The translations under genes were made by a program, and so were the position numbers. This document shows positions 3,403-37,214 of a DNA stretch of 64,000 nucleotides, in pieces. The notes beneath the pieces are model-generated. The model was not told the origin of the DNA. It searched no databases and saw nothing but the letters and a program-made list of their open reading frames with translations. Origin of the DNA: Escherichia coli (lineage in GTDB: Bacteria; Pseudomonadota; Gammaproteobacteria; Enterobacterales; Enterobacteriaceae); the NCBI RefSeq assembly GCF_016903815.1, contig NZ_CP069973.1; one strand, written 5' to 3'. Each line of letters begins with the position of its first letter. The first letter of the stretch is position 1.

Positions 3403-4860
3403 TTACTTCGCCGGAATTTCTTTCAGCAGCTCAGTCAGCAGTGTCCAGTAATGACCTACGCTTTCGATGTGAACTTGCTCATCCGGAGAGTGTGGACCGG
3501 TGATTGTTGGCCCGATAGAAACCATGTCCATTTCCGGATACGGTTTTTTGAACAGACCACATTCCAGGCCCGCGTGGATAATCTGGATGTTCGGCGTCTT
3601 GTTGAACAGACGCTGATAAGTTTCACGTACCAGATGCATCACCGGAGAATTAGCGTCCGGCTGCCAGCCAGGATATGCGCCTTTCGCTTCGGTTTTCGCG
3701 CCAGCCAGTTTACCCAGCGAATCCAGCATGCTCACCACGTAGTCTTTACCGCTGTCGATCAGAGAACGGATCAGGCAGTGAATTTCTACGTTATTGTCAG
3801 TCATGGTCACCACACCGACGTTCAGGGAGGTTTCCACCACACCTTTTGCCACATCGGAATTGCGGATCACACCGTTCGGGGTGGCGTTCAGCAGACGAAT
3901 AAAGGTATCGCGAGATTTCGCAATCAGGGCAGCTTTATCGTTCGCAACAGAGTCCAGCAGCAATGCCAGATTTTTCTCTTTCTCTGCCAGCTCGTTTTTC
4001 AGGATCTCCTGATAGGTATTCACCAGAGATTTCAGGGCGTCGACTTTATCAGCTGCGACAGCAATGGTCGCAAAGGCTTCACGCGGGATGGCGTTACGCA
4101 GTGTGCCACCGTTGAAATCGATAAGGCGCAGGTCCAGCTCTTCTGCATGACCCGCCAGGAAGCGCACCAGCAGTTTGTTGGCATTACCCAGGCCAACGTG
4201 GATTTCACCGCCGGAGTGACCGCCTTTCAGGCCTTTTAAGGTTAACTTGAAGGTTTCAAAACCAGCTGGAACCGCTTCACGATCTAAATGCAGGTTGGAG
4301 GTGAAGTCGATACCCCCCGCGCAACCCATGTAGATTTCACCTTCCTCTTCGGAGTCGGTGTTAATCAGAATATCAGCCTGCAACCAGTTGCTCTGTAAGC
4401 CAAAAGCACCATCCATACCGGCTTCTTCGGTCATGGTCAGCAGCACTTCCAGCGGGCCGTGAACCACGTTTTCGTCAGCCAGAACAGCCAGCGCAGACGC
4501 CATACCAATGCCGTTATCCGCACCCAGCGTGGTGCCGCGCGCTTTAACCCATTCGCCATCAATATAAGGCTGGATAGGATCTTTAGTGAAGTCATGCACG
4601 GTGTCGTTATTTTTCTGCGGCACCATATCGAGGTGGGCCTGCAAGACGACTGGTTTACGATTTTCCATACCTGCGGTAGCAGGTTTACGAATCAGGATAT
4701 TACCTACCTGATCGCGTTCGACATGGAAACCTTTCTCTTTTGCCCAACCAACAATGTATTCAGCGAGTTGCTCTTCATGATAGGACGGGTGAGGAATAGA
4801 ACAGATTTTGGCAAAAATATCCCACAGCGGCTGTGGAGATAATTGAGACAGTTCAGACAC
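3403..4860 (-). CDS. pepD: Cytosol non-specific dipeptidase (peptidase D)
   Basis: 485-aa ORF; M20-family peptidase sequence, recognised as PepD. Confidence 0.95.
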   Translation of the reverse strand: MSELSQLSPQPLWDIFAKICSIPHPSYHEEQLAEYIVGWAKEKGFHVERDQVGNILIRKPATAGMENRKPVVLQAHLDMVPQKNNDTVHDFTKDPIQPYIDGEWVKARGTTLGADNGIGMASALAVLADENVVHGPLEVLLTMTEEAGMDGAFGLQSNWLQADILINTDSEEEGEIYMGCAGGIDFTSNLHLDREAVPAGFETFKLTLKGLKGGHSGGEIHVGLGNANKLLVRFLAGHAEELDLRLIDFNGGTLRNAIPREAFATIAVAADKVDALKSLVNTYQEILKNELAEKEKNLALLLDSVANDKAALIAKSRDTFIRLLNATPNGVIRNSDVAKGVVETSLNVGVVTMTDNNVEIHCLIRSLIDSGKDYVVSMLDSLGKLAGAKTEAKGAYPGWQPDANSPVMHLVRETYQRLFNKTPNIQIIHAGLECGLFKKPYPEMDMVSIGPTITGPHSPDEQVHIESVGHYWTLLTELLKEIPAK

Positions 4861-5120
4861 GTTAAGTCTCCTTGTCGATCACCCGCAAAACAGTATTGCA
4901 GGTCACAGGGTTAGCAGAAAATGTTGTCAACACAAGACAGGCTTGCGAGATATGTTTGAGAATACCACTTTATCCCGCGTCAGGGAGAGGCAGTGCGTAA
5001 AAAGACGCGGACTCATGTGAAATACTGGTTTTTAGTGCGCCAGATCTCTATAATCTCGCGCAACCTATTTTCCCCTCGAACACTTTTTAAGCCGTAGATA
5101 AACAGGCTGGGACACTTCAC

Positions 5121-5579
5121 ATGAGCGAAAAATACATCGTCACCTGGGACATGTTGCAGATCCATGCACGTAAACTCGCAAGCCGACTGATGCCTTCTGA
5201 ACAATGGAAAGGCATTATTGCCGTAAGCCGTGGCGGTCTGGTACCGGGTGCGTTACTGGCGCGTGAACTGGGTATTCGTCATGTCGATACCGTTTGTATT
5301 TCCAGCTACGATCACGACAACCAGCGCGAGCTTAAAGTGCTGAAACGCGCAGAAGGCGATGGCGAAGGCTTCATCGTTATTGATGACCTGGTGGATACCG
5401 GTGGTACTGCGGTTGCGATTCGTGAAATGTATCCAAAAGCGCACTTTGTCACCATCTTCGCAAAACCGGCTGGTCGCCCGCTGGTTGATGATTATGTTGT
5501 TGATATCCCGCAAGATACCTGGATCGAACAGCCGTGGGATATGGGCGTCGTATTCGTCCCGCCAATCTCCGGTCGCTAA
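5121..5579 (+). CDS. gpt: Xanthine-guanine phosphoribosyltransferase
   Basis: 152-aa ORF with PRTase motif ([11 protein letters not shown]). Confidence 0.95.
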
Positions 5580-5586
5580 TCTTTTC

Positions 5587-5619
5587 AACGCCTGGCACTG
5601 CCGGGCGTTGTTCTTTTTA
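5587..5619 (+). terminator. Probable rho-independent terminator after gpt
   Basis: GC stem (caacgcc…ggcgttg) followed by a T-run. Confidence 0.5.
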
Positions 5620-5670
5620 ACTTCAGGCGGGTTACAATAGTTTCCAGTAAGTATTCTGGAGGCTGCATCC

Positions 5671-6915
5671 ATGACACAGGCAAACCTGAGCGAAACCCTG
5701 TTCAAACCCCGCTTTAAACATCCTGAAACCTCGACGCTAGTCCGCCGCTTTAATCACGGCGCACAACCGCCTGTGCAGTCGGCCCTTGATGGTAAAACCA
5801 TCCCTCACTGGTATCGCATGATTAACCGTCTGATGTGGATCTGGCGCGGCATTGACCCACGTGAAATCCTCGACGTCCAGGCACGTATTGTGATGAGCGA
5901 TGCCGAACGTACCGACGATGATTTATACGATACGGTGATTGGCTACCGTGGTGGCAACTGGATTTATGAGTGGGCCACCCAGGCGATGGTGTGGCAACAA
6001 AAAGCCTGTGCGGAAGAAGATCCGCAACTCAGTGGTCGTCACTGGCTGCATGCGGCTACGTTGTACAACATTGCCGCCTATCCTCATCTGAAAGGAGATG
6101 ACCTGGCCGAGCAAGCGCAGGCTTTGTCAAACCGCGCCTATGAAGAGGCCGCTCAGCGTCTGCCGGGCACCATGCGGCAGATGGAGTTTACCGTACCCGG
6201 CGGTGCGCCCATCACCGGCTTTTTGCATATGCCGAAAGGCGATGGCCCGTTCCCGACAGTATTAATGTGTGGTGGTCTGGATGCGATGCAGACGGACTAT
6301 TACAGCCTGTATGAACGTTATTTTGCGCCGCGCGGCATTGCGATGCTGACTATTGATATGCCGTCGGTGGGCTTTTCTTCAAAATGGAAGCTCACCCAGG
6401 ACTCCAGCCTGTTGCATCAGCACGTCTTAAAGGCGCTGCCTAACGTACCGTGGGTAGATCACACTCGCGTCGCGGCCTTTGGTTTCCGTTTCGGCGCTAA
6501 CGTTGCCGTGCGTCTGGCATACCTTGAATCGCCGCGTCTGAAAGCGGTTGCCTGTCTTGGTCCGGTAGTTCATACCCTGTTGAGTGATTTTAAGTGCCAG
6601 CAACAGGTGCCGGAAATGTATCTTGACGTTCTGGCGAGCCGTTTGGGGATGCATGATGCTTCCGACGAAGCGTTGCGCGTGGAGCTGAATCGCTATTCAT
6701 TAAAAGTGCAAGGATTGCTGGGACGTCGCTGCCCAACGCCAATGTTATCAGGCTACTGGAAGAACGATCCGTTCAGCCCGGAAGAGGACTCACGCTTAAT
6801 CACCTCATCATCTGCTGACGGTAAATTGTTAGAGATCCCATTTAACCCGGTGTATCGGAATTTTGACAAAGGTCTTCAGGAAATCACCGACTGGATTGAA
6901 AAACGATTGTGTTAA
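5671..6915 (+). CDS. frsA: Fermentation/respiration switch protein (esterase)
   Basis: 414-aa ORF recognised as FrsA. Confidence 0.9.
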
Positions 6916-7374
<459 letters not shown>

Positions 7375-7393
7375 GTGAAATGTGCCGGATGCA

Positions 7394-7414
7394 TCACATC
7401 CGGCAATATCCATT
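7394..7414. terminator. Hairpin between convergent crl and phoE
   Basis: Inverted repeat gccggatg / catccggc between two convergent genes; overlaps the phoE stop codon. Confidence 0.4.
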
Positions 7415-8468
7415 AAAACTGATAGGTCATGCCAACCGCGACAATATCATCATTATTGATGTTCAGCTTATTATCGCTATCCAGTTGGTTGATTTTATAA
7501 TCAACAAACGCTGACATATTTTTGTTGAAATAATATGTAGCACCGACGTCGATATAATTGACCAGATCTTCATCACCGATACCTTCAATATCTTTCCCTT
7601 TCGATAAGACATAACCCAGGGATGGACGCAGACCAAAGTCAAACTGGTATTGAGCGACCGCTTCAAAGTTCTGTGTCTTATTGGCAAAGCCGCCAGTTAT
7701 TGGCGTCATTTTGCGTGTTTCAGAATAGAAAGTTGCCAGATAAATATTATTGGCATCGTATTTCAGACCTGTTGCCCATGCTTCTGCACGCTTGCCTGTG
7801 CCACGGCTTTGCAGGTTCTGCTCGTTAGTGCGATCGGAGTTGGTATAGGCCCCACTGATGGCGAAATCGCTGCCACCAAAGTCATATGTCAATGACGTAC
7901 CGAAGCCATCGCCGTTTTGCTTTTTAACGTCGCGGTTTTCGTTTTTCCCTTGATATTGCAGGGTTAAGTTCAGGCCATCGATAACGCCGAAGAAGTCGGT
8001 GTTACGGTAAGTAGCCAGACCGCTGGCGCGTTTGGTCATAAAGTTGTCGGTCTGCGCCGAGGAGTCGCCACCAAATTCCGGGAACATATCGGTCCAGGCT
8101 TCCACGTCATACAGCGCGCCCAGGTTACGACCATAATCGAAAGAACCCAAATCTTTATATTTCAACCCGGCAAAAGCGAGACGCGTTTTTTGCTGTGCAG
8201 TATCACTCTCCGCTTTATTACCGGCAAACTCCGCTTCCCACCGACCATAACCCGTCAGTTGATCGTTAATTTGTGTTTCGCCTTTAAAACCAAAACGGAT
8301 ATAACTCTGGTCGCCATCTTTACTGTCGTTATCACTCATATAATGCATGGCTTTAACTTTGCCATAGACATCCAGTTTATTACCGTCTTTGTTATATATT
8401 TCTGCGGCCTGTACGGATGCAGATGCCACAATGCCCATCACCACTAATGCCAGAGTGCTCTTTTTCAT
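7413..8468 (-). CDS. phoE: Phosphate-starvation outer-membrane porin PhoE
   Basis: Porin sequence with signal peptide [21 protein letters not shown]; start moved to the second in-frame Met to give 351 aa. Confidence 0.9.
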
Positions 8469-9870: not shown

Positions 9871-11124
9871 ATGCTGGAACAAATGGGCATTGCCGCGAAG
9901 CAAGCCTCGTATAAATTAGCGCAACTCTCCAGTCGCGAAAAAAATCGCGTGCTGGAAAAAATCGCCGATGAACTGGAAGCACAAAGCGAAATCATCCTCA
10001 ACGCTAACGCCCAGGATGTTGCTGACGCGCGTGCCAATGGCCTTAGCGAAGCGATGCTTGACCGTCTGGCACTGACGCCCGCACGGCTGAAAGGCATTGC
10101 CGATGATGTGCGCCAGGTGTGCAACCTCGCCGATCCGGTGGGGCAGGTGATTGATGGTGGTGTGCTGGACAGCGGTCTGCGTCTGGAGCGTCGTCGCGTA
10201 CCGCTGGGGGTGATTGGCGTGATTTATGAAGCTCGCCCGAACGTGACGGTTGATGTCGCTTCGCTGTGCCTGAAAACCGGTAACGCAGTGATCCTGCGTG
10301 GTGGCAAAGAAACCTGTCGCACTAACGCTGCAACGGTGGCGGTGATTCAGGACGCCCTGAAATCCTGCGATTTACCGGCAGGCGCAGTACAGGCGATTGA
10401 TAATCCTGACCGCGCGCTGGTCAGTGAAATGCTGCGTATGGATAAATACATCGACATGCTGATCCCGCGTGGTGGCGCTGGCCTGCATAAGCTGTGCCGC
10501 GAACAGTCGACAATCCCGGTGATCACAGGCGGTATAGGCGTATGCCATATTTACGTTGATGAAAGTGCAGAGATCGCTGAAGCCCTGAAAGTAATTGTCA
10601 ACGCGAAAACTCAGCGTCCGAGCACATGTAATACGGTAGAAACGTTGCTGGTAAATAAAAACATCGCCGATAGCTTCCTGCCCGCATTAAGCAAGCAAAT
10701 GGCGGAAAGCGGCGTGACATTACACGCAGATGTAGCTGCGCTGGCGCAGTTGCAGGCAGGCCCCGCGAAGGTGGTGGCTGTTAAAGCCGAAGAGTATGAC
10801 GATGAGTTTCTGTCATTAGATTTGAACGTCAAAATCGTCAGCGATCTTGACGATGCCATCGCCCATATTCGTGAACACGGCACACAACACTCCGATGCGA
10901 TCCTGACCCGCGATATGCGCAACGCCCAGCGTTTTGTTAACGAAGTGGATTCGTCCGCTGTTTACGTTAACGCCTCTACGCGTTTTACCGACGGCGGCCA
11001 GTTTGGACTGGGTGCGGAAGTGGCGGTAAGCACACAAAAACTCCACGCGCGTGGCCCAATGGGGCTGGAAGCACTGACCACTTACAAGTGGATCGGCATT
11101 GGTGATTACACCATTCGTGCGTAA
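9871..11124 (+). CDS. proA: Gamma-glutamyl phosphate reductase
   Basis: 417-aa ORF directly downstream of proB. Confidence 0.95.
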
Positions 11125-11238
11125 ATAAAACCGGGTGATGCAAAAGTAGCCATTTGATTCACAAGGCCATTGACGCATCGCCCGGTTAGTTTTAACCTTG
11201 TCCACCGTGATTCACGTTCGTGAACATGTCCTTTCAGG

Positions 11239-11314
11239 GCCGATATAGCTCAGTTGGTAGAGCAGCGCATTCGTAATGCGAAGGTCGGAGGTTCGACTCC
11301 TCTTATCGGCACCA
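11239..11314 (+). tRNA. thrW: tRNA-Thr (CGU anticodon)
   Basis: 76-nt sequence GCCGATATAGCTCAGTTGGTAGAGCAGC…GGTTCGACTCCTCTTATCGGCACCA with cloverleaf features and encoded CCA; position after proA matches thrW. Confidence 0.9.
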
Positions 11315-11328
11315 TTAAAATCAATAAG

Positions 11329-11595
11329 TTACACATCATTAGTACCTTCCTTATTTTTTGACTGGGACAAATTTGGGACCGATGGGTTCAGGACTGAGTC
11401 TATTTGCCGTGCGTGTTCGGTAAGGTGATTAGGCGCGAGGTGAGCATATCGACGAACCATTTCGATAGACTCCCAGCCTCCCATTTCTGAAAATGCAAGA
11501 AGAGAAACACTGGACTGAACCAGCCTGCTTGCCTTTGCTATCAAAGTACCTTGAAGGCCAGATGATTTCTGGCGATATTTACAGCGCTTCCGCAA
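11329..11595 (-). pseudogene. Tyrosine-recombinase (phage integrase) C-terminal remnant
   Basis: ORF ends in …[30 protein letters not shown]…, a typical P4-like integrase C-terminus; the upstream part is degenerate and there is no room for the catalytic core; lies 15 bp from the tRNA 3' end. Confidence 0.7.
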
Positions 11596-11677
11596 TGAGT
11601 TTTTCTCTGTGCCGCCAGAGGCGTTCCCCGCTTTTTCAGCACCGCAATAATGTCGGCGGAATGCCAGTCCTGTTGCA

Positions 11678-12148
11678 TCATGCGGCCACCTCGCTGATAA
11701 ATTTTACGCCGTCGGCGGTACGCAGCCAGCGTGGGGCTTTGAGTCCTTCCGTGAAATACCAGACCAGCTCACACAGCAGCCCGGTCAGGGTTTGCTCCAT
11801 TTTTGGTTCCGCCGGACGTTCCAGCAGAAGCTGGAGTAGTGCGAGGCAGTATTCGCACAAGGAATCAGGTTCGGAAATAAAGTGCTCTGGTGTGGCGGGA
11901 AGGGTATCCACGGTCAGGCTTTCGGTAAGATGCGGTGGGATGGGGTCGTGTAGTGTGGGTTGCAGTAGCGCAAGAGCCGCGTGAAGCCGCCCGCAGAGCG
12001 CCAGTCGTAGCGCTGGATCGTCGGTTTCAATCAGGGTTTCGGCAAAGCGGGCGCAGTAGTCAGCAAGGACAGTGAAATCCGTGGTGGCATTGAAGGGGAC
12101 GGTCAATAGATCGAGTAAATCGCTGTCAGTGGTGAGGATTGTAGCCAT
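11678..12148 (-). CDS. Hypothetical acidic protein (156 aa), unknown function
   Basis: Clean ORF with an AGGAGG-like RBS (ggaggttgcc) just upstream of its ATG; leucine/acidic-rich; no family recognised by eye. Confidence 0.5.
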
Positions 12149-12494
12149 AGGGCAACCTCCGATAAGTGGGTGTTCAAGCCACCACCGGAGAGGCTAATCT
12201 CGCGGGTGGTGGAACCGGGCAGGGTTAGCCTTACCAGCCTTATCGGACACTGGCGCGTCTTGCGACGCCCCCGCCCGGCCCACCATTGAGATGTAACCGT
12301 GCGAACAACACAAAAAAAGACGCTGGCGCGTCATGTGTCGCCGATAAGATTTCTTCAGGAGGCTAATCCCGACGCCTGATTTTGCAGGCGCGGGAGAAAG
12401 ATACTGCGATTGGTCATGAGTGGCAAGGGCTACATCATGTTTACCAACATCTCACGCAAAAATACCCTGATTATTAATAGCGAAAATCAGTTTC

Positions 12495-15400
12495 TTATTT
12501 TGGCGGTAGCTTTTTGCGGTTCTTTGCCAACTGGAATCCTTCAGGTAACGGTTTGAATTTATCGCCGCCTTTAGGCCAGCGTTTTGCCCTGCTCTGAAAT
12601 GCCCTTAACGAGTCGATATCCAGCGTTGCAGCGACCACAAAGTCATTATCACCGCCCTTCACACGAGCAATATCACGCATAAAGGGTTCTTTTGCCGGGG
12701 AACGTACGCGACTATCGCCGTATTTTCGGTTATTCACTAAAATAGTATAGGCATGAATATCCAGCGCTGCTGATTCAATCAACGATGCAAACGTATCTAG
12801 ATCTTTATTCCAGCTCAATACCATTAATGCATCGAGTGCGCCCTGAAAACGGATCCTCGCTTTACTATTCTGGAGTTCAGAGCAAATCATAACGCCAAAA
12901 TTGACGCCGTGATGAATATATACCGGCTTACGTTGTTTAACATTAAGTGTCGAATCCCAAGACTTACCATAAATTGAAAATAATGCCTCATCTTCACCTA
13001 CGGCGGGTTCCAGCTTGGGTTGCCATATTTTGACACTCGCTGGATAGCCGAGTCTGTTATCTGAAAGGACAAGTACGGCCTCACTCTTCAGTTGATTATC
13101 GTCTAAGTGGCGGTATTCTGTTCCCGCAATTAGACTGATACCCGCCGAACTCAAACGATCAGCAATACTGTTAACCCAGCGTAACGGGATTGAAAGCTCA
13201 GGGAATAAAACATAATCAGGTTTAGGAGATAGTTTCAATGTTGCATTAACCAGTTCAGAAATCCGCTGGTACCTTGAACGGGACAAGTTAGATTTATTGC
13301 AGGCCATTTTAGCCCAGTCGTCCTCCTCTGTTTTAATGCTGGTTAGCGCAACGACAACTTTATGTTTCCTGTCTGTGCCAATATGAATGAATTTCTTAGG
13401 CCGAGCTTTTTTTGTCGCTTCATCTGAGTCCTGCTCCGATGCTAGCAACGTCGGTTTGATCCATACTCCGCGTAATGCTTGAGTATATTTTGCCCAAATG
13501 GTGGACGGTCTCTCATCTGGTTTTTTGTCGGATGTGGAGGGTAATCCAACACATTCGGGGGCCAGTTCTGATATTTCAGCGGGTGTTAAAGGACGTGTAG
13601 GGAAAATGTAAGGTAGGTAACTTTCGTTCTTACGATTTCCTTTAGCCACTTTTTCCAGTCGGGTATTCTTGGTTGATTTCAAAAATAGCTTAATAACGTC
13701 AATATCAATAAGCGATGAGTCGCTCATTAATTTCAGTATTTTAACTTCTTTTTTACTATCACGCTGATTAACAAGTTTTTCTGCCGACTGACTCTTTACG
13801 ATCTGTTTATAAGGTTCCTTTGCTAAATCAGCTCGAGCTACCAATGGCGCTTTTAAATAAAAATCTGCTGAATCAAAGCGAAGATCCAGTAAATCCTTTA
13901 GATTCGTCAGACTTTGTGAAATATGATTAAAAAATGTATCCGCAAGGCACTCTTCTTTCTTTGAACGTTTATCAAGAAATAATCTGTCAGGACTGTAATA
14001 TCGTGTCGCTGCATCAACAAATAGCCAGCTTAATGTGCCTTTTATACAGCGCCAAAGATCATTTACTGCTCGAGTTTTGCAACCATTTATATTCACTTCC
14101 TTACCTGAAGTAATCACCGATGCCAACAGGTTGATGGATTCGTAAGCTTTAAGTACAATTTTTTCCGCGTGCTGCCATTCATTCATACTGATAGCAAAGC
14201 CAAGCAGCCTTGGCAGATAACTAAAATGTGCAAATAGATTATCAGCCCTAAGAATATGGTTGTAGGCAAACTGATAAAACTCTTCCCGCTGTTCTTTCCA
14301 TTCACTTGGAGGCAGATCTCGTGCCAGTGTTTCAACGTAGCGTAATTGCAGTGACCAGCCCAAACGACGAATGGTTAATCCATCCGCACGGCGCAGAGTA
14401 TCGGCATTTTCACCTACACTACCGGCAGCGGAAAGGACTTTAGCTGCGGTGGAGTGTTCCAGTTGATCCGGTGAAGGCATCAAGCGGTGTTCACTAGAAA
14501 GCTCGTAGATCTCCTTTTCGATACTGTCGAGCAGGTCTATTCCAGCCCTCCCTTGAAGCACGAAAAGTTTTTGCTTATCGGATTGTAACTGGATGGTGGT
14601 CTTACCCTGGAAATGCTCGCCCTGCTGTATTTGCCATATTTGTTTTTGCTCGTTTTTCAAATAAACGCAATCATTGCCAAGCCTATCTTGCAGCAATAAC
14701 ATAAATTCGTGATTATTAGTAATTGTCCCTGTATCGCGTATTACAAGGAACATATCATCGACATAACGACCGTAGTGAATTGGTGATAGTTTTTCAATGA
14801 CTAATTTATCCCAATGGTGTAGCAATATATTTGAAATGATCCGACTGGCTGTTAATCCAATGACCAGACCACCATTAATAACAGGTGTTTTGTACGCTAT
14901 TTTCTTTCCAAATGCCGCTGCGCCGTCAGACCAGTGCTTTAAGAATACTGCTAACTGTGCAGTAAACGCTTTTTCATCCTCAGTCAGTTTTATGTTTAGT
15001 GTGTTATAGAGATCATCAGAGGTTATAGCCAGTGGATCAATAAAATGATAGTAACTTTTTAAATCCAGTGAGGCGGCGATAATGTCACGATCTTTTTCCA
15101 ACTCGTCACGTATAGCTTTTAAGCCATCACCACGCCATTTTTGGTAGGGCTGGAAGTAGGGGCTAAAAGAACCCACGGCACTGATATGGAATGGATTATC
15201 CTGCTCATTGCTAAATAATTCATCATTACGAATACGCTTTAGCCGCGCGCCATAGCAACAGTTATCTAAGCTGGCATCAAATTTATGCCCGACCATGTTA
15301 ATCCATAGTGCAGAGATAATGTGACTATCAACCGGGAAGTCACCAATAATACGAAACTCTGGTATCAGATCAAAATTATTAAATAAATGGTCGGCTGCTC

Positions 15401-15704
15401 GTTTAGGATTAGAAAAGTGGACGTGTCCATTTTGGGATTCATGTTTTTTCTTTGTGGTTAATTTTTTCGGTAACAAACGAAATTTGCCAATCAACTTCTT
15501 ATTGCTACTGAATCCATCTTCGCTCTGCAAAAGATCTAAGAGTTTTTGCAGGTTTTCAAGTAATTCCTGCTCATACTCGGCAAATTTGATAGCAACAGGA
15601 AATGTATTCTCAAAGAAGCTATCGGCTTTTGCTTTCCGGTAAGCGACCAGAAGGTCTTCAATCGTCAGATCATCCCAGCCAGTGAAAATTGCCTGATATG
15701 TCAT
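12495..15704 (-). CDS. Reverse transcriptase fused to a C-terminal nitrilase (carbon-nitrogen hydrolase) domain; candidate defence-associated RT (UG/DRT-like)
   Basis: 1069-aa ORF. RT motifs: ASLDLKSYYHFID (motif A), GLVIGLTASRIISNIL (motif B-like), YGRYVDDMFLV (YVDD at 14754-14765). C-terminal nitrilase-like triad candidates: FPELSIP (Glu codon 13197-13199), a Lys near VKIWQPK, GVMICSE (Cys codon 12881-12883). Confidence 0.8.
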   Translation of the reverse strand: MTYQAIFTGWDDLTIEDLLVAYRKAKADSFFENTFPVAIKFAEYEQELLENLQKLLDLLQSEDGFSSNKKLIGKFRLLPKKLTTKKKHESQNGHVHFSNPKRAADHLFNNFDLIPEFRIIGDFPVDSHIISALWINMVGHKFDASLDNCCYGARLKRIRNDELFSNEQDNPFHISAVGSFSPYFQPYQKWRGDGLKAIRDELEKDRDIIAASLDLKSYYHFIDPLAITSDDLYNTLNIKLTEDEKAFTAQLAVFLKHWSDGAAAFGKKIAYKTPVINGGLVIGLTASRIISNILLHHWDKLVIEKLSPIHYGRYVDDMFLVIRDTGTITNNHEFMLLLQDRLGNDCVYLKNEQKQIWQIQQGEHFQGKTTIQLQSDKQKLFVLQGRAGIDLLDSIEKEIYELSSEHRLMPSPDQLEHSTAAKVLSAAGSVGENADTLRRADGLTIRRLGWSLQLRYVETLARDLPPSEWKEQREEFYQFAYNHILRADNLFAHFSYLPRLLGFAISMNEWQHAEKIVLKAYESINLLASVITSGKEVNINGCKTRAVNDLWRCIKGTLSWLFVDAATRYYSPDRLFLDKRSKKEECLADTFFNHISQSLTNLKDLLDLRFDSADFYLKAPLVARADLAKEPYKQIVKSQSAEKLVNQRDSKKEVKILKLMSDSSLIDIDVIKLFLKSTKNTRLEKVAKGNRKNESYLPYIFPTRPLTPAEISELAPECVGLPSTSDKKPDERPSTIWAKYTQALRGVWIKPTLLASEQDSDEATKKARPKKFIHIGTDRKHKVVVALTSIKTEEDDWAKMACNKSNLSRSRYQRISELVNATLKLSPKPDYVLFPELSIPLRWVNSIADRLSSAGISLIAGTEYRHLDDNQLKSEAVLVLSDNRLGYPASVKIWQPKLEPAVGEDEALFSIYGKSWDSTLNVKQRKPVYIHHGVNFGVMICSELQNSKARIRFQGALDALMVLSWNKDLDTFASLIESAALDIHAYTILVNNRKYGDSRVRSPAKEPFMRDIARVKGGDNDFVVAATLDIDSLRAFQSRAKRWPKGGDKFKPLPEGFQLAKNRKKLPPK

Positions 15705-15998
15705 GCGTTATCGTCCTTAGATTACAGTCTGTACAGAATTAGCCAGCCGTTTCATGCCCGAAGGGGGGCTCTTGACACCAGTAATCCATCAGTGAGGCTG
15801 GCAATAATTTTGATTTGTATCCATGTTACACGCTCCCCGCAACCAGTCCGAGCATATATTTGTCACATTTTTCCCGAAAGTGATTAAGTTTGAATTTTTT
15901 GTTTAATGTCGATTTTTAGTCGACAAAATGAGGAATAAGTAAACTATTTCTTGCTGTGGCGTATCCCTGAATCTACACTGGTTTAAATATTTGTACTA

Positions 15999-16802
15999 AT
16001 GTCTATTCAGAGGCGACAGTTGCCAAACTATCTAAACTGGCTGATGCAGCACACGCTACCCGGCCAGGTGCTGCTCCAGTCATGGCTTACCCGCAACGGC
16101 ATAGATCGTAAGCTCTCTTATCTCTATGTGAAGAATGGCTGGCTCAGGCGGATCGCTCACGGCGTATACTGCCGGACGGGTCGTGAACCGGATTGGGTGG
16201 ATGCGGTTTACTGCCTGCAATCGCAGTGGGAAAAGCCTGTTCGGGTGGCGGGGCTAACCAGCCTTGCGCTTCAGGGTCATGCGCACTATACCGAACAGGG
16301 TAAGCCGCAGGTCTGGCTCGCGCTTCCGGCTTACGTCAAACTGCCGGGATGGTTTTCTGCCTTTGAACAATCCGCAACATTTGTCACGCTGTATACGTCA
16401 GGCCTTACCGCTGATGTAACGCCATTTACTACGGAACTGAAAATTGGTGACCGGCAGTTAGCGGGCAGTGTCCCGGAACTGGTCGCGTATGAGATCGCTT
16501 GTGGCGTTCCTTCGTTGATCTCGTTCGAACATGCCGATGCTCTGTTTCAGGGGATGAATCTTCTCAGCCCGCGTAAATTGCAGGCGTTACTCTGCGCCAG
16601 TCATTCGGTTAAAACCAACCGGGTGATGCTTTACCTTGCCCGGCGTAATGGACACCCTTATTTTCAGTTTATTGATCAAAGCGGTATAGAAACAGGTACG
16701 GGAAAGCGGCAAATCATACCCGGCGGCTGGCTGGAGCCGGATTATCAAATTACTGTTCCACGCGCATTTAAACCGGAAGGAGTCGAAGATGGATCTGCGT
16801 GA
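15999..16802 (+). CDS. AbiEi-like antitoxin/transcriptional regulator (type IV TA / abortive infection)
   Basis: 267-aa ORF; N-terminal segment (…LYVKNGWLRRIAHGVYCR…) matches the AbiEi wHTH signature; overlaps the next gene by 14 bp. Confidence 0.65.
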   Translation: MSIQRRQLPNYLNWLMQHTLPGQVLLQSWLTRNGIDRKLSYLYVKNGWLRRIAHGVYCRTGREPDWVDAVYCLQSQWEKPVRVAGLTSLALQGHAHYTEQGKPQVWLALPAYVKLPGWFSAFEQSATFVTLYTSGLTADVTPFTTELKIGDRQLAGSVPELVAYEIACGVPSLISFEHADALFQGMNLLSPRKLQALLCASHSVKTNRVMLYLARRNGHPYFQFIDQSGIETGTGKRQIIPGGWLEPDYQITVPRAFKPEGVEDGSA

Positions 16803-17709
16803 TAGCTATGCCCGGCAGGTCAAACTGTTGATGGCCGCTCTGCCGTATGTGGCGAAGGAGTCCTGTTTCGCGTTGAAAGGCGGCACCGCAATCAATTTGT
16901 TTGTGCAGGATTTTCCCCGTCTGTCGGTGGATATTGATCTGGCGTATAAGAGCTTTGCGGATCGCGATACTGATCTGGCGGCTATCAACGACGCTTTGAA
17001 GAGGATTACTGCATCGCTGAACGGCAGACCGGGGATCACCGCGATTCGGCAGGAAAATAAAGCGGATGAAAAGCGCATCATTGTGAATACCGCTGATGCA
17101 AAGATTAAGATCGAGGTTAGCCCGGTCTGGCGCGGGCTGTTGTTGCCTCCGGCAGAAATGCCTGTGTGCGAACGTGTGGAAATGGAGTATGGCTTCACCA
17201 CCATGAGTGTCGTCTCGCTGGCGGATCTTTATGGCGGTAAAATCTGCGCAGCGCTTGATCGTCAGCACCCGCGCGATCTGTTTGATGTGCTGAATATGCT
17301 GGAGAAACCGGGACTGATGCGGGAGATCTTTGACGGTTTTCTTTGTTATCTGGCAGGCCATCCCCGCCCCATTGCCGAGTTGCTGGCCCCAAACTGGGAT
17401 ACAGAGCGGATCACGACGCTGTATGCTCAGGAATTTTCGGGGATGACTCAGCAGGAAACGTCGCTGGAATCGCTGCTGTCAGTAACGACTTTGCTGCCGC
17501 AGGCGTTGAAGTCACATCTTACGGATCTGGATCGCGAGTTCTTGCTCAGTTTTAAGCAAAACAGCCCTGACTGGTCGCGGTATCGCTATCCTGAAATTCA
17601 GCATCTTCCGGCTATTCGCTGGAAGCAACGTAATCTGGCGGTGCTGAAAGATAAAAATCCGGCGAAGTATGTGGCGGCGGTGAATAAGCTAGAGAGGGTG
17701 CTGGCGTAA
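16789..17709 (+). CDS. AbiEii-like nucleotidyltransferase toxin (DUF1814-type)
   Basis: 306-aa ORF with nucleotidyltransferase motif FALKGGTAINLF…RLSVDIDLAY; translationally coupled to the upstream AbiEi-like gene. Confidence 0.7.
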   Translation: MDLRDSYARQVKLLMAALPYVAKESCFALKGGTAINLFVQDFPRLSVDIDLAYKSFADRDTDLAAINDALKRITASLNGRPGITAIRQENKADEKRIIVNTADAKIKIEVSPVWRGLLLPPAEMPVCERVEMEYGFTTMSVVSLADLYGGKICAALDRQHPRDLFDVLNMLEKPGLMREIFDGFLCYLAGHPRPIAELLAPNWDTERITTLYAQEFSGMTQQETSLESLLSVTTLLPQALKSHLTDLDREFLLSFKQNSPDWSRYRYPEIQHLPAIRWKQRNLAVLKDKNPAKYVAAVNKLERVLA

Positions 17710-17821
17710 TCAATAGACCAGCATTAATCACAGATGATTACCAATCAGCCAGAAATGGTTAAATCGTCGAATTCATAATTAATACTTTTTCTTACGCCGC
17801 TGAACAGCTTGAAAAGGATGT

Positions 17822-17933
17822 ATATTTTAAATAGCAGTGAAGTGAACAGTTTATTGCCGTTATTAATAGAGATGGAGGAATAAATACGCGTATTCTACTA
17901 TTGCAACAAAAACAACGATAATGATCAGTTTTC
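17822..17933. repeat. Dispersed ~110-bp repeat, copy A
   Basis: About 88% identical by eye to 37104-37214; shared core …tgaagtgaacagtttattgccgttattaataga…cgtattcta…aaaacaacgata…tcagttt. Confidence 0.75.
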
Positions 17934-18142
17934 ATAATGAAGTAACCTGATAGATATAAAAATGTTGATTGAGGCTAAATGCCCGGATGAAGGTTGTCGA
18001 GGGAGCCAGGTGGTTTTTTCTTTTGGGTGATCTCCATTGCTGGATAGTCCCCTCTTTCTCGCTCAAAGCAGACCCTGGAATTGAACGCAGAGGGACTACC
18101 TGACACAATTTTGCACAGTGAAGAGTCGGTCGTTATTAACGT

Positions 18143-19027
18143 TCAGATTTTCAATGTATCAATGACCATCCGCAGGGCGGGGGAGACGTTGCGATGAGGG
18201 TAATAGAGAAACAATCCCTCCATTCGCAGGCTGTAACGCTGCAACACCCTGATAAGCTTACCGTGTTCTAAATCATCCGCGACCAGTTCAACAGGAACAT
18301 AGGCCAATCCGAGGCCCAGCCGGGCTGCTTCTGCTTCCATATAGCTGTCGGATAAGGCCCATTGCCCTTCAGGGCGATGAGTGATTTTTTTATCATCCTG
18401 ATTGAGTTCCCACTGGTATACGCTGCCGTCGGCAAACTGATAGGCGATACAGGGATGCGCCTTTAAATCCGCCGGGGTTTGCGGAAAACCATAGCGACGA
18501 AAATGTTCCGGAGTCCCCACAATTGCCATCTCCATATCGGGCGTGATGCGTACCGCGACCATACCCTGGCCGACTTCAGGCCCCAGGCGGACACCTGCAT
18601 CGAATCTTTCCTCGATGATATCGACGAACCGGCTCTCATTTATCAGTTCAAGCCGGATATCAGGATATCTCTGTTTAAATACCGCCAGCTTTGGCAGCAG
18701 GCATTTATCAATCGCGTGCTGGCTGGCATTGATACGCACCGTGCCGGAGGGCGTCTCTCGATAGTGCGCCAGCGTGGCAAGCCCAAGATCTAACATTTCA
18801 AATCCAGATGCCGTCTTCTGGTAGAGCTGCTCGCCTGCTTGTGTCAGCGACAGTTTACGCGTGGTGCGCACTAGCAGCTGGACGCCCAGCCTTTCTTCAA
18901 GCTCGCGAACAGAACGGCTGACTCCTGACTGAGCAAGACCCAGCCGCTGAGCCGCTGCGGTAAAGCTGCCTTCCCGCACCACCTGCATAAACAGGTACAG
19001 CTCGTTGTAGTTCTCCCTTTTCGCCAT
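18143..19027 (-). CDS. LysR-family transcriptional regulator
   Basis: 294-aa ORF with LysR N-terminal HTH (FTAAAQRLGLAQSGVSRSV) and substrate-binding domain; divergent from the hydrolase gene. Confidence 0.85.
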   Translation of the reverse strand: MAKRENYNELYLFMQVVREGSFTAAAQRLGLAQSGVSRSVRELEERLGVQLLVRTTRKLSLTQAGEQLYQKTASGFEMLDLGLATLAHYRETPSGTVRINASQHAIDKCLLPKLAVFKQRYPDIRLELINESRFVDIIEERFDAGVRLGPEVGQGMVAVRITPDMEMAIVGTPEHFRRYGFPQTPADLKAHPCIAYQFADGSVYQWELNQDDKKITHRPEGQWALSDSYMEAEAARLGLGLAYVPVELVADDLEHGKLIRVLQRYSLRMEGLFLYYPHRNVSPALRMVIDTLKI

Positions 19028-36820: not shown

Positions 36821-37103
36821 CATAAAGATACATGCTCATCCGGATCATTTCAACACCCAATCCCTGTGACCATTTGTGGTATGTGGAATTTCGGCAACGG
36901 GGAAGTCTGGCATTGTTAGCAGCCATTGGCGACGCTCCCATAAACGCCTTGATGAGTGATGGTTTCGCTGAGAGTATGAATTTTTCGAGAATGGAGGCTA
37001 TCTCCATTTTACTGGCCGATGATTTATCGCAGTTTGATTGCCGGACAGCGTGTATTCCTCTCCCACGGATATAATAATTACTTACAAAAAAGGGAGAGGA
37101 TGC

Positions 37104-37214
37104 ATATTTTTTAATATCACTGAAGTGAACAGTTTATTGCCGTTATTAATAGAAATGGAGAAATAAATAGGCGTATTCTACAATTGCGACAAAAACAACG
37201 ATATTAATCAGTTT
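37104..37214. repeat. Dispersed ~110-bp repeat, copy B
   Basis: About 88% identical by eye to 17822-17933. Confidence 0.75.

Follow-up and report, generated by a model that had tools for sequence, protein, structure and literature searches.

Two members of the UG5-large group of reverse transcriptases (RTs) have been validated experimentally and one has been characterised biochemically. The S. meliloti RMO17 protein DRT11 works as a single gene with no non-coding RNA: its defence depends on the RT DD motif and the nitrilase cysteine, protection is MOI-dependent, removal of the 179 bp that precede the promoter (109,019–109,193) has no effect and no flanking transcript is seen (bioRxiv 10.64898/2025.12.16.694600). 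Defence has also been reported for the E. coli E101 'RT-nitrilase + 1TM' system (Rousset et al. 2022, PMC9122126), which needs its transmembrane (TM) partner (PMC9226505). The E101 RT sequence is identical to 'DRT5L', an enzyme that needs no template to make covalent DNA and does so with RNase A present (Neville et al. 2026, PMC13275509). A TM protein (clusters 85/1858) is optional in UG5-large, being found in 31 of 299 members (Mestre et al.), and since DRT11 also lacks one it is not a defining feature of the group.

In DRT1, a UG1 enzyme, residue S402 acts as the primer, the resulting DNA adduct drives filament formation, a C-terminal lid is present and a single gene brings about abortive infection; the K1219A substitution abolishes defence (PMC13275509). 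Protein-primed, template-independent DNA synthesis is known for DRT1, DRT5L and DRT5S, and S402 is stated not to be conserved in other class 3 RTs (PMC13275509).

Here we describe an RT-nitrilase gene in a 64,000-nucleotide stretch of E. coli DNA (the window). By analogy with the systems above, we put the probability at roughly 0.7 that it encodes a stand-alone defence RT that would work via a DNA-adduct-controlled nitrilase, leading to abortive infection.

Family assignment

12495–15704, minus strand: RT-nitrilase gene, ATG start, 1069 amino acids plus stop codon

The protein is present in RefSeq as WP_001521910.1 with the annotation 'RNA-directed DNA polymerase'. The chance of 1069 random codons without a stop is ~5e-23, and the GC content of the ORF is 41.8%, compared with 50.2% in the core DNA upstream and 49.9% downstream, matching the AT-rich character that a sequence-only reading of the window had judged by eye. 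A Shine-Dalgarno sequence, AAGGA, lies 9 nt from the ATG.

Evidence for the identity of the protein comes from PADLOC, where the RT_UG5-nitrilase profile (PDLC03780) matches amino acids 1–1068 to profile positions 9–901 of 907 with a score of 1034.5 bits (E = 0). RT_UG5_small matches amino acids 15–413 (2.8e-39), the runner-up outside UG5 is Drt1a (88.6 bits, amino acids 151–409 only), a second Drt1a model reaches 34.3 bits over amino acids 940–1045 and the retron RTs score ~30 bits. The protein also displays the features expected of UG5-large: a palm with the motif A aspartate and a motif C Y-x-D-D, a fused C-terminal nitrilase with intact Glu-Lys-Cys and, with 1069 amino acids, the length of ~1000 or more that comes with the RT-hydrolase extension. 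Judged by these matches, the gene belongs to UG5-large, a group of Class 3 UG/Abi RTs that comprises 858 clusters at 50% identity (E <= 1e-30) and is the sister group of UG1/DRT1. The sequence-only reading was right to place it among the UG/DRT enzymes, but the kinship with DRT1 that it cited holds at the level of sister groups only, and its suggestion of a possible new UG family falls away: UG5-large, with its validated members, is an already catalogued anti-phage family, and the present finding is the correct identification of that family rather than the discovery of another.

A search against Pfam, which had been proposed as a check with RVT_1 and CN_hydrolase, gave no match at E <= 0.001 to these or any other families. 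The lack of any significant RT or CN-hydrolase HMM match had been named in advance as counting against an RT-nitrilase; this is what Pfam returns, but not the PADLOC profile, and because the UG5-large clade is divergent a test based on Pfam is too strict. Among 80 UG5-large members, RVT_1 was found in 64 and CN_hydrolase in none at the same threshold, whilst UG1 members do match RVT_1. Because Pfam was negative, the domain assignments below lean on PADLOC profiles, fold comparisons and profile–profile alignment with DRT1.

Other assignments were considered and rejected. DRT1/UG1 membership is contradicted by the partial Drt1a match, the lack of an NCBIfam Drt1 match and a non-homologous middle region. 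As for a retron, NCBIfam retron_St85_RT scores 32.2 bits where 235 are required and there is no flanking non-coding RNA. For a group II intron, no intron RNA was found in 11000–18500 at E <= 1, and the C-terminus is a nitrilase.

Domains and active sites

15258–15704, minus strand: N-terminal region, amino acids 1–149, conserved within UG5-large
14442–15257, minus strand: RT core, amino acids 150–421, with motif A Asp214 at 15063–15065 and motif C YVDD at 14754–14765
14475–14498, minus strand: SSEHRLMP motif, amino acids 403–410, with Ser404 at 14493–14495
13440–14396, minus strand: alpha-helical middle region, amino acids ~437–755, helical-repeat fold class
12585–13391, minus strand: nitrilase-superfamily (C-N hydrolase) domain, amino acids ~772–1040
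13197–13199, 13014–13016, 12993–12995 and 12882–12884, minus strand: catalytic tetrad Glu836, Lys897, Glu904 and Cys941
12498–12584, minus strand: C-terminal tail, amino acids 1041–1069, with the conserved K1051-P-L-P-E-G-F at 12534–12554

The AF2 model of the 1069 amino acid protein, a structure prediction of the kind proposed beforehand, is a confident one (pLDDT 90.1, pTM 0.93) and confirms that the RT and nitrilase folds are both present. Together with the intact ORF and the UG5-nitrilase profile, it bears out the earlier proposal of an RT-nitrilase fusion in a single polypeptide. That reading had located the YVDD and the glutamate of FPELSIP exactly, had pointed to a lysine near VKIWQPK (amino acids 891–897), which is the invariant K897, and had picked the correct cysteine, in GVMICSE, with a coordinate one base off (12881–12883). 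In an alignment of the 80 UG5-large members (27–64% identity), D214, Y311, R313, Y314, D316, D317, S404, E836, K897, E904, C941 and K1051 are invariant, and because the catalytic residues are among them the RT and nitrilase motifs (including LDLKSYYHFID, amino acids 213–223, and YGRYVDDMFLV, amino acids 311–321) are not chance look-alikes.

The N-terminal region, in which A21, K26, E45, W134 and G139 are invariant within UG5-large, is probably an RT N-terminal extension or fingers, going by its sequence; its profile match to the DRT1 N-terminus is collinear but weak (probability 9%). By contrast with the flanking domains, the middle region is the least conserved stretch and its alpha-solenoid matches are generic only.

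Profile–profile comparison (hhalign) with DRT1 (PDB 9YFD), which is ~160 amino acids longer, indicates that the RT cores are homologous (98.8% probability), as are the nitrilases (99.4%), with the Glu-Lys-Glu-Cys tetrads paired. The two proteins have in common the Class 3 architecture, a conserved serine in the loop that follows the palm and a C-terminal Lys-x-x-Pro-x-Gly-Phe lid: the tail pairs in alignment with the domain-swapped active-site 'lid' that DRT1 carries, K1051, P1054 and G1056 falling opposite K1219, P1222 and G1224. In UG5-large K1051 is invariant and P1054 and G1056 are each conserved in at least 90% of members; all three are invariant in UG1. Between the middle region and the DRT1 alpha-repeat domain, through which the filament contacts are made, no sequence similarity is seen (probability 0.1%), so filament formation may differ from that of DRT1.

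Within the SSEHRLMP motif, S404 is conserved in 80/80 members, E405 in 78/80, R407 in 77/80 and P410 in 74/80. On this pattern Ser404 is a candidate priming serine. Both it and DRT1 Ser402 fall in the segment after the palm, Ser404 being upstream by three columns and a two-residue gap in the hhalign alignment; an alternative register with a four-residue indel is equally plausible. The SS-x-x-x-L-P motif is also found in E101/DRT5L and in DRT5S (UG5-small, cluster 249), a related RT with protein-primed synthesis in which the nitrilase is a separate gene rather than fused.

DRT11 has the same layout as the E. coli protein (an RT with YVDD, a connector and a nitrilase with Lys...Cys-x-Glu), with Lys and Cys 43 residues apart in DRT11 and 44 in the E. 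coli protein (bioRxiv 10.64898/2025.12.16.694600). Both lack a TM partner and a non-coding RNA, and both lie in a variable island with an AbiEii-type neighbour. DRT11 is, however, 1005 rather than 1069 amino acids long and is found on an alphaproteobacterial megaplasmid rather than in a chromosomal island.

E101/DRT5L, the one UG5 system from E. coli to have been tested to date, is strongly different. Both proteins are UG5-large, in E. coli and in a mobile-element context, and the RT N-terminal half (E 7e-17) and the nitrilase (2e-20) can be aligned with the catalytic glutamate and cysteine kept, but identity is only 27–29% (27% over amino acids 13–320). E101 has 947 amino acids, requires a downstream 230 amino acid single-TM protein, is active at room temperature only and occupies the P4 psu-int hotspot rather than a thrW island with lambdoid-type remnants. 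Neither the window nor any of 76 related loci encodes a homologue of the E101 TM protein, and no hydrophobic ORF flanks the gene.

A probable mode of action

If the E. coli protein behaves as its described relatives do, the RT would make short, untemplated DNA covalently attached to the enzyme itself and primed by a protein hydroxyl, with Ser404 as the candidate. The DNA adduct would then lead to oligomerisation through the nitrilase domains, holding the nitrilase poised but closed, and in this closed state the conserved C-terminal K1051 tail would complete or occlude a neighbouring active site. Phage infection would relieve the closed state, allowing the Glu836-Lys897-Glu904-Cys941 hydrolase to attack an essential substrate, and the outcome would be abortive infection with protection of the population at low MOI. 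We infer the mode of DNA synthesis, the priming residue, the regulation by filament and lid and the anti-phage activity from these analogies; the AbiE-adjacent island context and purifying selection, described below, lend indirect support to a defence role. As a naturally solo, chromosomal UG5-large gene in E. coli, it offers a convenient native-host model for studying the substrate of class 3 DRT nitrilases, the priming residue outside DRT1 (for which Ser404 is a concrete candidate) and whether other class 3 DRTs share the DNA-adduct/filament latch of DRT1.

The thrW island

11239–11314, plus strand: thrW, tRNA-Thr(CGT), identified by ARAGORN; the left end of the island falls within 11239–11595
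11329–11532, minus strand: C-terminal remnant of an SfIV-type integrase (RefSeq), 90.5% identical to the Shigella phage SfIV integrase
11678–12148, minus strand: conserved hypothetical ORF of 156 amino acids, downstream of C4/isrK, not a membrane protein
15999–17709, plus strand: AbiEi/AbiEii pair of the toxin–antitoxin, abortive-infection type (PADLOC AbiEi 2.2e-77, AbiEii 4.3e-116; RefSeq AbiEi start 16020)

As the sequence-only reading had proposed, the gene lies in a tRNA-adjacent island. Comparison with an empty-site strain places the inserted block at ~11333–17698, making an island of 6.4 kb at thrW, and neither an attR nor a repeat of the tRNA 3′ end is present within the 64-kb window. 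The RT-nitrilase gene has been horizontally acquired into this decayed mobile-element island. The AbiE pair is a separate, independent defence module: in strain E302 it is found without the RT, beside a type I restriction–modification (R-M) system, the shared module beginning at 15796, and the pair is absent from 76 other RT loci. The 156 amino acid ORF has no match in NCBIfam, PHROG or PADLOC, and homologues 3′ of the RT are found only at two related loci, L089 (3.5e-54) and L090 (1.1e-20).

Distribution and selection

The island is present in 258–260 of 5426 complete E. coli genomes (~5%). The full-length sequence is carried by 260 E. coli genomes at a nucleotide identity of 99% or higher and the protein is 100% identical; this near-identity is a product of clonal descent and does not by itself point to selection. 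Comparison with the E. albertii copy, at a dS of 0.21–0.30, gives a dN/dS of 0.076–0.124, and comparisons with more distant copies give 0.044–0.054: the gene is under purifying selection. The order AbiEi-RT-isrK-C4-orf156 is repeated at L090, in a contig that has diverged to 74–84% nucleotide identity, with a dN/dS of 0.044.

15705–15765, minus strand: upstream segment, extending ~56–61 nt 5′ of the ATG and containing the AAGGA Shine-Dalgarno sequence
15766–15998, strand not assigned: divergent RT/AbiEi intergenic region, presumed from its position to hold the promoter

In blastn comparisons homology to the gene extends from 15760/15765 to 12493/12501, so that the 15705–15765 segment is the sole flanking DNA that travels with it. 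In Salmonella, Yersinia and Citrobacter relatives the counterpart of this segment is the 3′ end of kwaB. Expression would come from the RT–AbiEi intergenic region, but no consensus sigma-70 promoter at 9/12 or better is present in 15705–15998, and because only ~60 nt of upstream DNA have been kept the promoter of the E. coli gene is unproven. These observations raise the possibility, which we regard as unlikely, that the gene in E. coli is an inactive relic cut from an hsdRMS-(kwaAB)-RT operon, having lost its promoter, required partners or both and being kept only by clonal inheritance. Homology that ends inside the kwaB gene of the relatives, the missing consensus promoter, the loss of integrase and attR from the island, the tightly abutting upstream gene at 30 of 64 family loci and the partner requirement of E101 would all fit such a history. 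A relic, however, would not be expected to retain an intact ORF with every catalytic residue and a good Shine-Dalgarno sequence, nor a dN/dS of 0.08–0.12 against the E. albertii copy, and the solo, AbiEi-divergent layout has been kept at L090. Moreover, 27 of the 64 loci (42%) are solo, with no abutting co-oriented gene, and DRT11 and DRT1 function as single genes.

Genomic partners in related loci

The nearest relatives outside the E. coli clade have the RT at the end of hsdRMS operons, with or without kwaAB. A block of hsdR-M-S-kwaA-kwaB-RT with gaps of 12–55 nt is seen in Salmonella, Yersinia, Citrobacter, Pleionea and metagenomes. HsdM/HsdS-type genes occur within 6 kb of the RT at 28/64 loci, often with 4-nt overlaps. 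That relatives are often nested in operons of type I R-M, or of R-M together with Kiwa, offers a testable lead on cooperation between defence systems.

It is conceivable, if quite unlikely, that the RT-nitrilase is coupled to its neighbour system (type I R-M/Kiwa in relatives, AbiE here), for example as a PrrC-like back-up effector that is set free once its partner has been inhibited. The recurrence of the operon block and of the Hsd-type genes speaks for coupling, as do the AbiE-type genes adjoining the RT in the window, at L090 and in S. meliloti (bioRxiv 10.64898/2025.12.16.694600). The partner nevertheless differs between close relatives, being Kiwa plus R-M at 73–76% identity, R-M only at 82%, an ABC-type ATPase at 71% and AbiE or nothing at 81–100%. 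Furthermore, there is no R-M or Kiwa gene beside the E. coli copy, AbiE is found without the RT and DRT11 is sufficient alone.

The same arrangement invites a very unlikely extension, in which the present clade of UG5-large RT-nitrilases is a 'guardian' of restriction systems, standing time and again at the end of type I R-M operons, with KwaA/KwaB in one clade. The RT-nitrilase might then lie latent under the upstream system, or sense its inactivation, like PrrC/EcoprrI; a Ser404-primed DNA adduct would be the latch, with the solo gene of E. coli as a natural derivative that had become autonomous.

Non-coding RNA

12202–12290, minus strand: C4 antisense RNA (Rfam 71.1 bits)
12313–12391, minus strand: isrK (Rfam 68.8 bits)
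12352–12404, minus strand: c4-a1b1 target sites (Rfam 43.8 bits)

The E. coli RT-nitrilase is a stand-alone single-gene system with no TM partner and no non-coding RNA. Rfam identifies no RNA adjoining the RT on its 5′ side and no msr/msd, intron or DGR template RNA, which, with intron and retron models scoring ~30 bits or nothing, agrees with the earlier view that this is neither a group II intron nor a retron. The upstream RNA fold has a z of +0.95, and the RT/AbiEi intergenic region gives no sign of a structured RNA. Homology with relatives, in which the gap 5′ of the RT is 12 nt, stops at the RT stop codon and ~60 nt 5′ of the ATG, and no conserved non-coding flanking DNA accompanies the gene among them.

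An RNA-templated enzyme (retron-, DRT2/DRT9-like, group II intron or DGR) copying a dedicated non-coding RNA is therefore extremely improbable. Structured RNAs, isrK and C4, do lie just downstream of the RT, but these are known phage regulatory RNAs and do not occur in relatives whose identity is 76% or less. Retron, DRT2 and DRT3 profiles score ~20–32 bits against cut-offs of 200–390, compared with 1034 bits for UG5; template-free DNA synthesis by Class 3 RTs, one UG5-large among them, goes ahead with RNase A present, and the upstream deletion in DRT11 is without effect.

The C4, isrK and a1b1 elements (12202–12404) lie immediately 3′ of the RT on the same strand, with the same RNAs 3′ of the RT at L089 and L090, and constitute a mobile-element regulatory module. 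In RefSeq an 'ash family protein' CDS (12194–12367) overlaps these RNAs.

A UG5-large RT-nitrilase

The ORF at 12495-15704 on the minus strand (3210 nt, ATG start, 1069 aa) encodes a UG5-large RT-nitrilase, a member of a family that PADLOC and the UG/Abi classification already include and that has tested members. A stop-free run of this length has a chance probability of ~5e-23. The sequence-only reading had called a fusion of reverse transcriptase (RT) and nitrilase here, an interpretation that proves essentially right: every motif it quoted is found in the ORF, the only correction being to the codon of Cys941 in GVMICSE, which lies one base away from the position it gave. Its remarks on context also hold, the ORF having a GC content of 41.8% against ~50% on each side and lying 1.2 kb from a tRNA-Thr(CGT) gene. 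The motifs are placed as follows.

aa 213-223: LDLKSYYHFID
14754-14765: YVDD
13197-13199: Glu836
aa 891-897: VKIWQPK
12882-12884: Cys941 of GVMICSE

The assignment to UG5-large comes from PADLOC, whose RT_UG5-nitrilase model covers aa 1-1068 of the protein (1034.5 bits, E = 0). A second UG5 model matches the N-terminal half only (188.7 bits), RTasNitrilase matches aa 783-1058 (2e-43), and RT_UG5_small (2.8e-39) and Drt1a (88.6 bits) also score. The NCBIfam retron, Drt2, Drt3 and Drt4 models reach 18-32 bits, below their cut-offs of 200-450. UG5 belongs to the Class 3 UG/Abi RTs defined by Mestre et al. (PMC9226505); in UG5-small the nitrilase is a separate ORF, whilst in UG5-large it is fused to the RT, and 31 of 299 members have a downstream gene for a transmembrane (TM) protein (PMC9226505). 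The tested E. coli system, E101/DRT5L, shares only 27% identity with the window protein over aa 13-320 and 29% over aa 773-1057, and a literature search found no paper mentioning its RefSeq accession, WP_001521910. Particular to the window gene are this divergence from the E. coli system already tested, the fact that it stands alone, the conserved residues Ser404 and K1051, and the nesting of its relatives with restriction-modification (R-M) and Kiwa genes.

Evidence for both enzyme domains

The sequence-only reading had taken the lack of a significant match to RVT_1 or CN_hydrolase as grounds for refutation and, taken literally, that is the outcome: Pfam-A has no match of any kind to the protein at E <= 0.001. 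Among 80 diverse relatives, RVT_1 is detected at the same threshold in 64 and CN_hydrolase in none, so Pfam is insensitive to this UG5-large clade, chiefly to its nitrilase domain. Given these counts and the strong fold and profile evidence, the misses reflect low sensitivity rather than absent domains, and Pfam was dropped as arbiter.

Relatives were collected by a word-indexed search (992 matches) and by an exhaustive search (858 clusters at 50% identity, E <= 1e-30), and 80 full-length UG5-large members with 27-64% identity were aligned. Invariant in this alignment are D214 of RT motif A, Y311, R313, Y314, D316 and D317 of motif C, and E836, K897, E904 and C941, which are spaced as the Glu-Lys-Glu-Cys tetrad of the nitrilase superfamily; S404 and K1051 in the tail are invariant also. 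An AlphaFold2 model built from the alignment (pLDDT 90.1, pTM 0.93) matches nitrilase-superfamily amidases in a Foldseek search of the PDB (E ~1e-7, target TM 0.63-0.68), as well as the RTs AbiA, LINE-1, DGR, DRT2, DRT4, DRT6, DRT9, UG15 and group II.

Profile-profile comparison with DRT1, the UG1 RT-nitrilase, used an alignment whose numbering recovers the published D324/D325, S402 and C1116. The nitrilase domains match with 99.4% probability, pairing E836/K897/E904/C941 with E1017/K1077/E1084/C1116, and the RT cores with 98.8% probability (aa 150-421 against DRT1 151-416). The first 150 residues are well kept across UG5-large; against the N-terminus of DRT1 they give a match that is collinear but only weak. 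The all-helical region at aa ~437-755 is the least conserved of the protein and shows no profile similarity to the alpha-helical repeat domain of DRT1 (probability 0.1%).

The island at thrW

The tRNA-Thr(CGT) gene can be identified as thrW because it is flanked by phoE-proB-proA. Shigella serotype-converting phages classically use this gene as their attachment site. Comparison with the empty-site strain DG342-2 bounds the insert at ~11333-17698, with the following order from the tRNA, the RT lying between the RNAs and the divergent AbiE pair.

11329-11681, minus strand: C-terminal remnant of an SfIV-type integrase, 90.5% identical to that of Shigella phage SfIV, and an HTH pseudogene, adjoining thrW
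11678-12148, minus strand: 156-aa ORF with no NCBIfam, PHROGs or PADLOC match
12202-12404, minus strand: C4 antisense RNA, isrK and c4-a1b1 target sites (Rfam), directly downstream of the RT
15999-17709, plus strand: AbiEi/AbiEii pair (PADLOC 2.2e-77 and 4.3e-116), divergent to the RT

A search for attR found the 3' end of the tRNA only once, so the island is immobilised; repeats within it are short pairs at chance level. The C4/isrK match had raised the possibility of a P4-like satellite remnant, which was dropped since the integrase remnant is of the SfIV type (90.5%) and the C4/isrK segment looks like the antirepressor regions of lambdoid/Stx phages. A RefSeq CDS for a 57-aa 'ash family protein' (12194-12367) overlaps the C4/isrK/a1b1 RNAs; instead of a genuine protein it probably marks a truncated antirepressor leader or an RNA. 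C4/isrK RNAs also follow the RT in two relatives at 82% (L089) and 81% (L090) identity, where the 156-aa ORF is conserved downstream of them (3.5e-54 and 1.1e-20, respectively); this ORF probably belongs to a regulatory operon of the mobile element.

On its right, the island is bordered by a ykgR remnant (17863-17931), and a second ykgR-like stretch, 89.8% identical to the empty-site copy, is found ~19 kb further on (~37097-37214), which suggests that the ykg region has been rearranged in this lineage.

Restriction-modification and Kiwa genes beside relatives

In relatives at 73-76% identity (from Salmonella, Yersinia, Citrobacter, two metagenomic contigs and Pleionea), the RT ends an hsdR-hsdM-hsdS-kwaA-kwaB-RT block with gaps of 12-55 nt, a layout conserved from Enterobacterales to Pleionea and with Kiwa genes recognised by PADLOC (KwaA 7.5e-15, KwaB 1.5e-6). 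The E. coli copy keeps only ~60 nt of the relatives' kwaB 3' end, and the block is absent from 15705-15998 of the window. In the 82% relative, hsdRMS-RT stands without Kiwa and is followed by isrK, C4, a homologue of the 156-aa ORF, an HTH gene, EFASI RNA and an Integrase_1 gene; the 81% relative has the E. coli arrangement (divergent AbiEi, RT, isrK, C4, 156-aa ORF) at 74-84% nucleotide identity. In relatives the C4/isrK RNAs belong to an element with EFASI RNA and an Integrase_1-type integrase, the latter two indicating what kind of integrative element this RT clade travels on.

L004 (Salmonella), 3598-8216: hsdR-hsdM-hsdS-kwaA-kwaB-RT block; same layout in L007, L009, L010 and L011
L004, 8836-8966, and L089, 10005-10133: EFASI RNA (Rfam RF02957, 103-112 bits), 5' of an Integrase_1-family integrase and downstream of the RT

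A wider scan, run on GTDB species genomes, confirmed 455 relatives and yielded 76 loci. Neighbourhoods were counted in 64 loci that, after dereplication, had 2.5 kb or more of sequence context upstream. A co-oriented ORF abuts the RT start in 30 of the 64, often with a 4-nt overlap, and the RT stop in 17, with neither in 27; an HsdM/HsdS-type gene lies within 6 kb in 28 and Kiwa genes are present in five. These counts indicate a self-contained module, often nested in R-M operons and also often solo. A requirement for Kiwa was rejected, given that the hsdRMS-RT locus of the 82% relative lacks Kiwa and the RT of the 81% relative stands alone, and upstream partners in general are too variable to be obligatory: in Vibrio anguillarum, for example, an ABC/SMC-type ATPase gene overlaps the RT start. 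A clade at ~30% identity has recurring [~1200 aa][~600-650 aa]-RT-[~590 aa] operons. No discussion of R-M nesting of UG5-large RTs was found in the UG5/DRT literature examined.

Searches for a partner, an ncRNA and a promoter

Nucleotide homology to relatives ends at the stop codon on one side and reaches no more than ~56-61 nt beyond the ATG on the other; the upstream gap in those relatives is 12 nt. Rfam gives no match upstream of the RT, and the 294-nt intergenic region there folds no better than its shuffles (z = +0.95). Neither ORF inspection nor homology to the E101 TM protein identified a TM partner. An AAGGA Shine-Dalgarno sequence lies 5' of the ATG; no consensus sigma-70 promoter was detected upstream.

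The divergent AbiE pair is the other candidate partner. AbiEi adjoins the RT again in the 81% relative, and an AbiEii-type gene is reported next to DRT11, the S. meliloti UG5-large (bioRxiv 10.64898/2025.12.16.694600). In E. coli E302, however, AbiE lies next to a type I R-M system and the RT is missing; the DNA that this strain shares with the window starts at 15796, leaving ~90 bp of RT-specific upstream sequence. None of the 76 other RT loci has AbiE. AbiE was therefore rejected as a partner, and its adjacency is probably defence-island co-location.

Characterised relatives and a possible mechanism

E101, an 'RT-nitrilase + 1TM' system from an E. coli P4 hotspot, has validated defence activity and is active at room temperature (Rousset et al., PMC9122126). 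Its protein 1 is identical in sequence to 'DRT5L', which Neville et al. purified (PMC13275509). They found that DRT1, DRT5S and DRT5L need no template to make DNA, doing so with RNase A present, and that the product is covalently attached to the protein. In DRT1 the primer is S402, the DNA adducts drive tetramers into quiescent filaments, the nitrilase site is closed by a domain-swapped C-terminal lid in which K1219 is essential, and activation needs the T4 Dda helicase, with abortive infection as the outcome (PMC13275509). DRT11, which is TM-less, is sufficient alone; it depends on the DD motif of its RT and on the Cys of its nitrilase, its protection is confined to low MOI, and no ncRNA could be detected (bioRxiv 10.64898/2025.12.16.694600).

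The window protein resembles these relatives in having both catalytic centres and no ncRNA, and its tail motif K1051-x-x-P1054-x-G1056-F aligns with K1219/P1222/G1224 of DRT1. Ser404 is invariant in all 80 aligned members and forms part of a conserved motif, S-S-E-x-R-L-[LM]-P. It is placed where the post-palm helix ends, in the same segment as DRT1 S402; in hhalign the two serines fall in different columns, 3 columns and a 2-residue gap apart. The equivalent place reads 'SSAFRFLP' in E101/DRT5L and 'SSDFLLLP' in DRT5S. On the strength of this invariance, the shared segment and the recurring SS motif, we propose that Ser404 may be the priming residue of UG5 RTs. The DRT1 authors report that conservation of S402 does not extend to other class 3 RTs (PMC13275509), which fits a shifted position better than an absent one. 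Filament formation by analogy with DRT1 is less secure for the window protein, since the inter-tetramer helical domain of DRT1 lacks a detectable counterpart.

Selection and spread

Of 5426 complete E. coli genomes, 260 carry the RT, all but one of them at 99% identity or more, and 258 carry the whole island. Island-bearing strains include E. coli 7/2 and ST38 isolates, whereas MG1655 is without it. E. albertii NBRC 107761 carries the same RT on two fragments (L021 and L034) at 94-95% amino-acid identity and with the same downstream flank. Homology to these fragments runs 68 nt past the RT stop codon, so they share the downstream context, and the island or its RT segment is thus either older than E. 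coli and E. albertii or has moved between them. The dN/dS of the window RT against the two fragments is 0.076 and 0.124 (dS 0.30 and 0.21); against L090, L089 and the Salmonella relative it is 0.044-0.054, with dS saturated.
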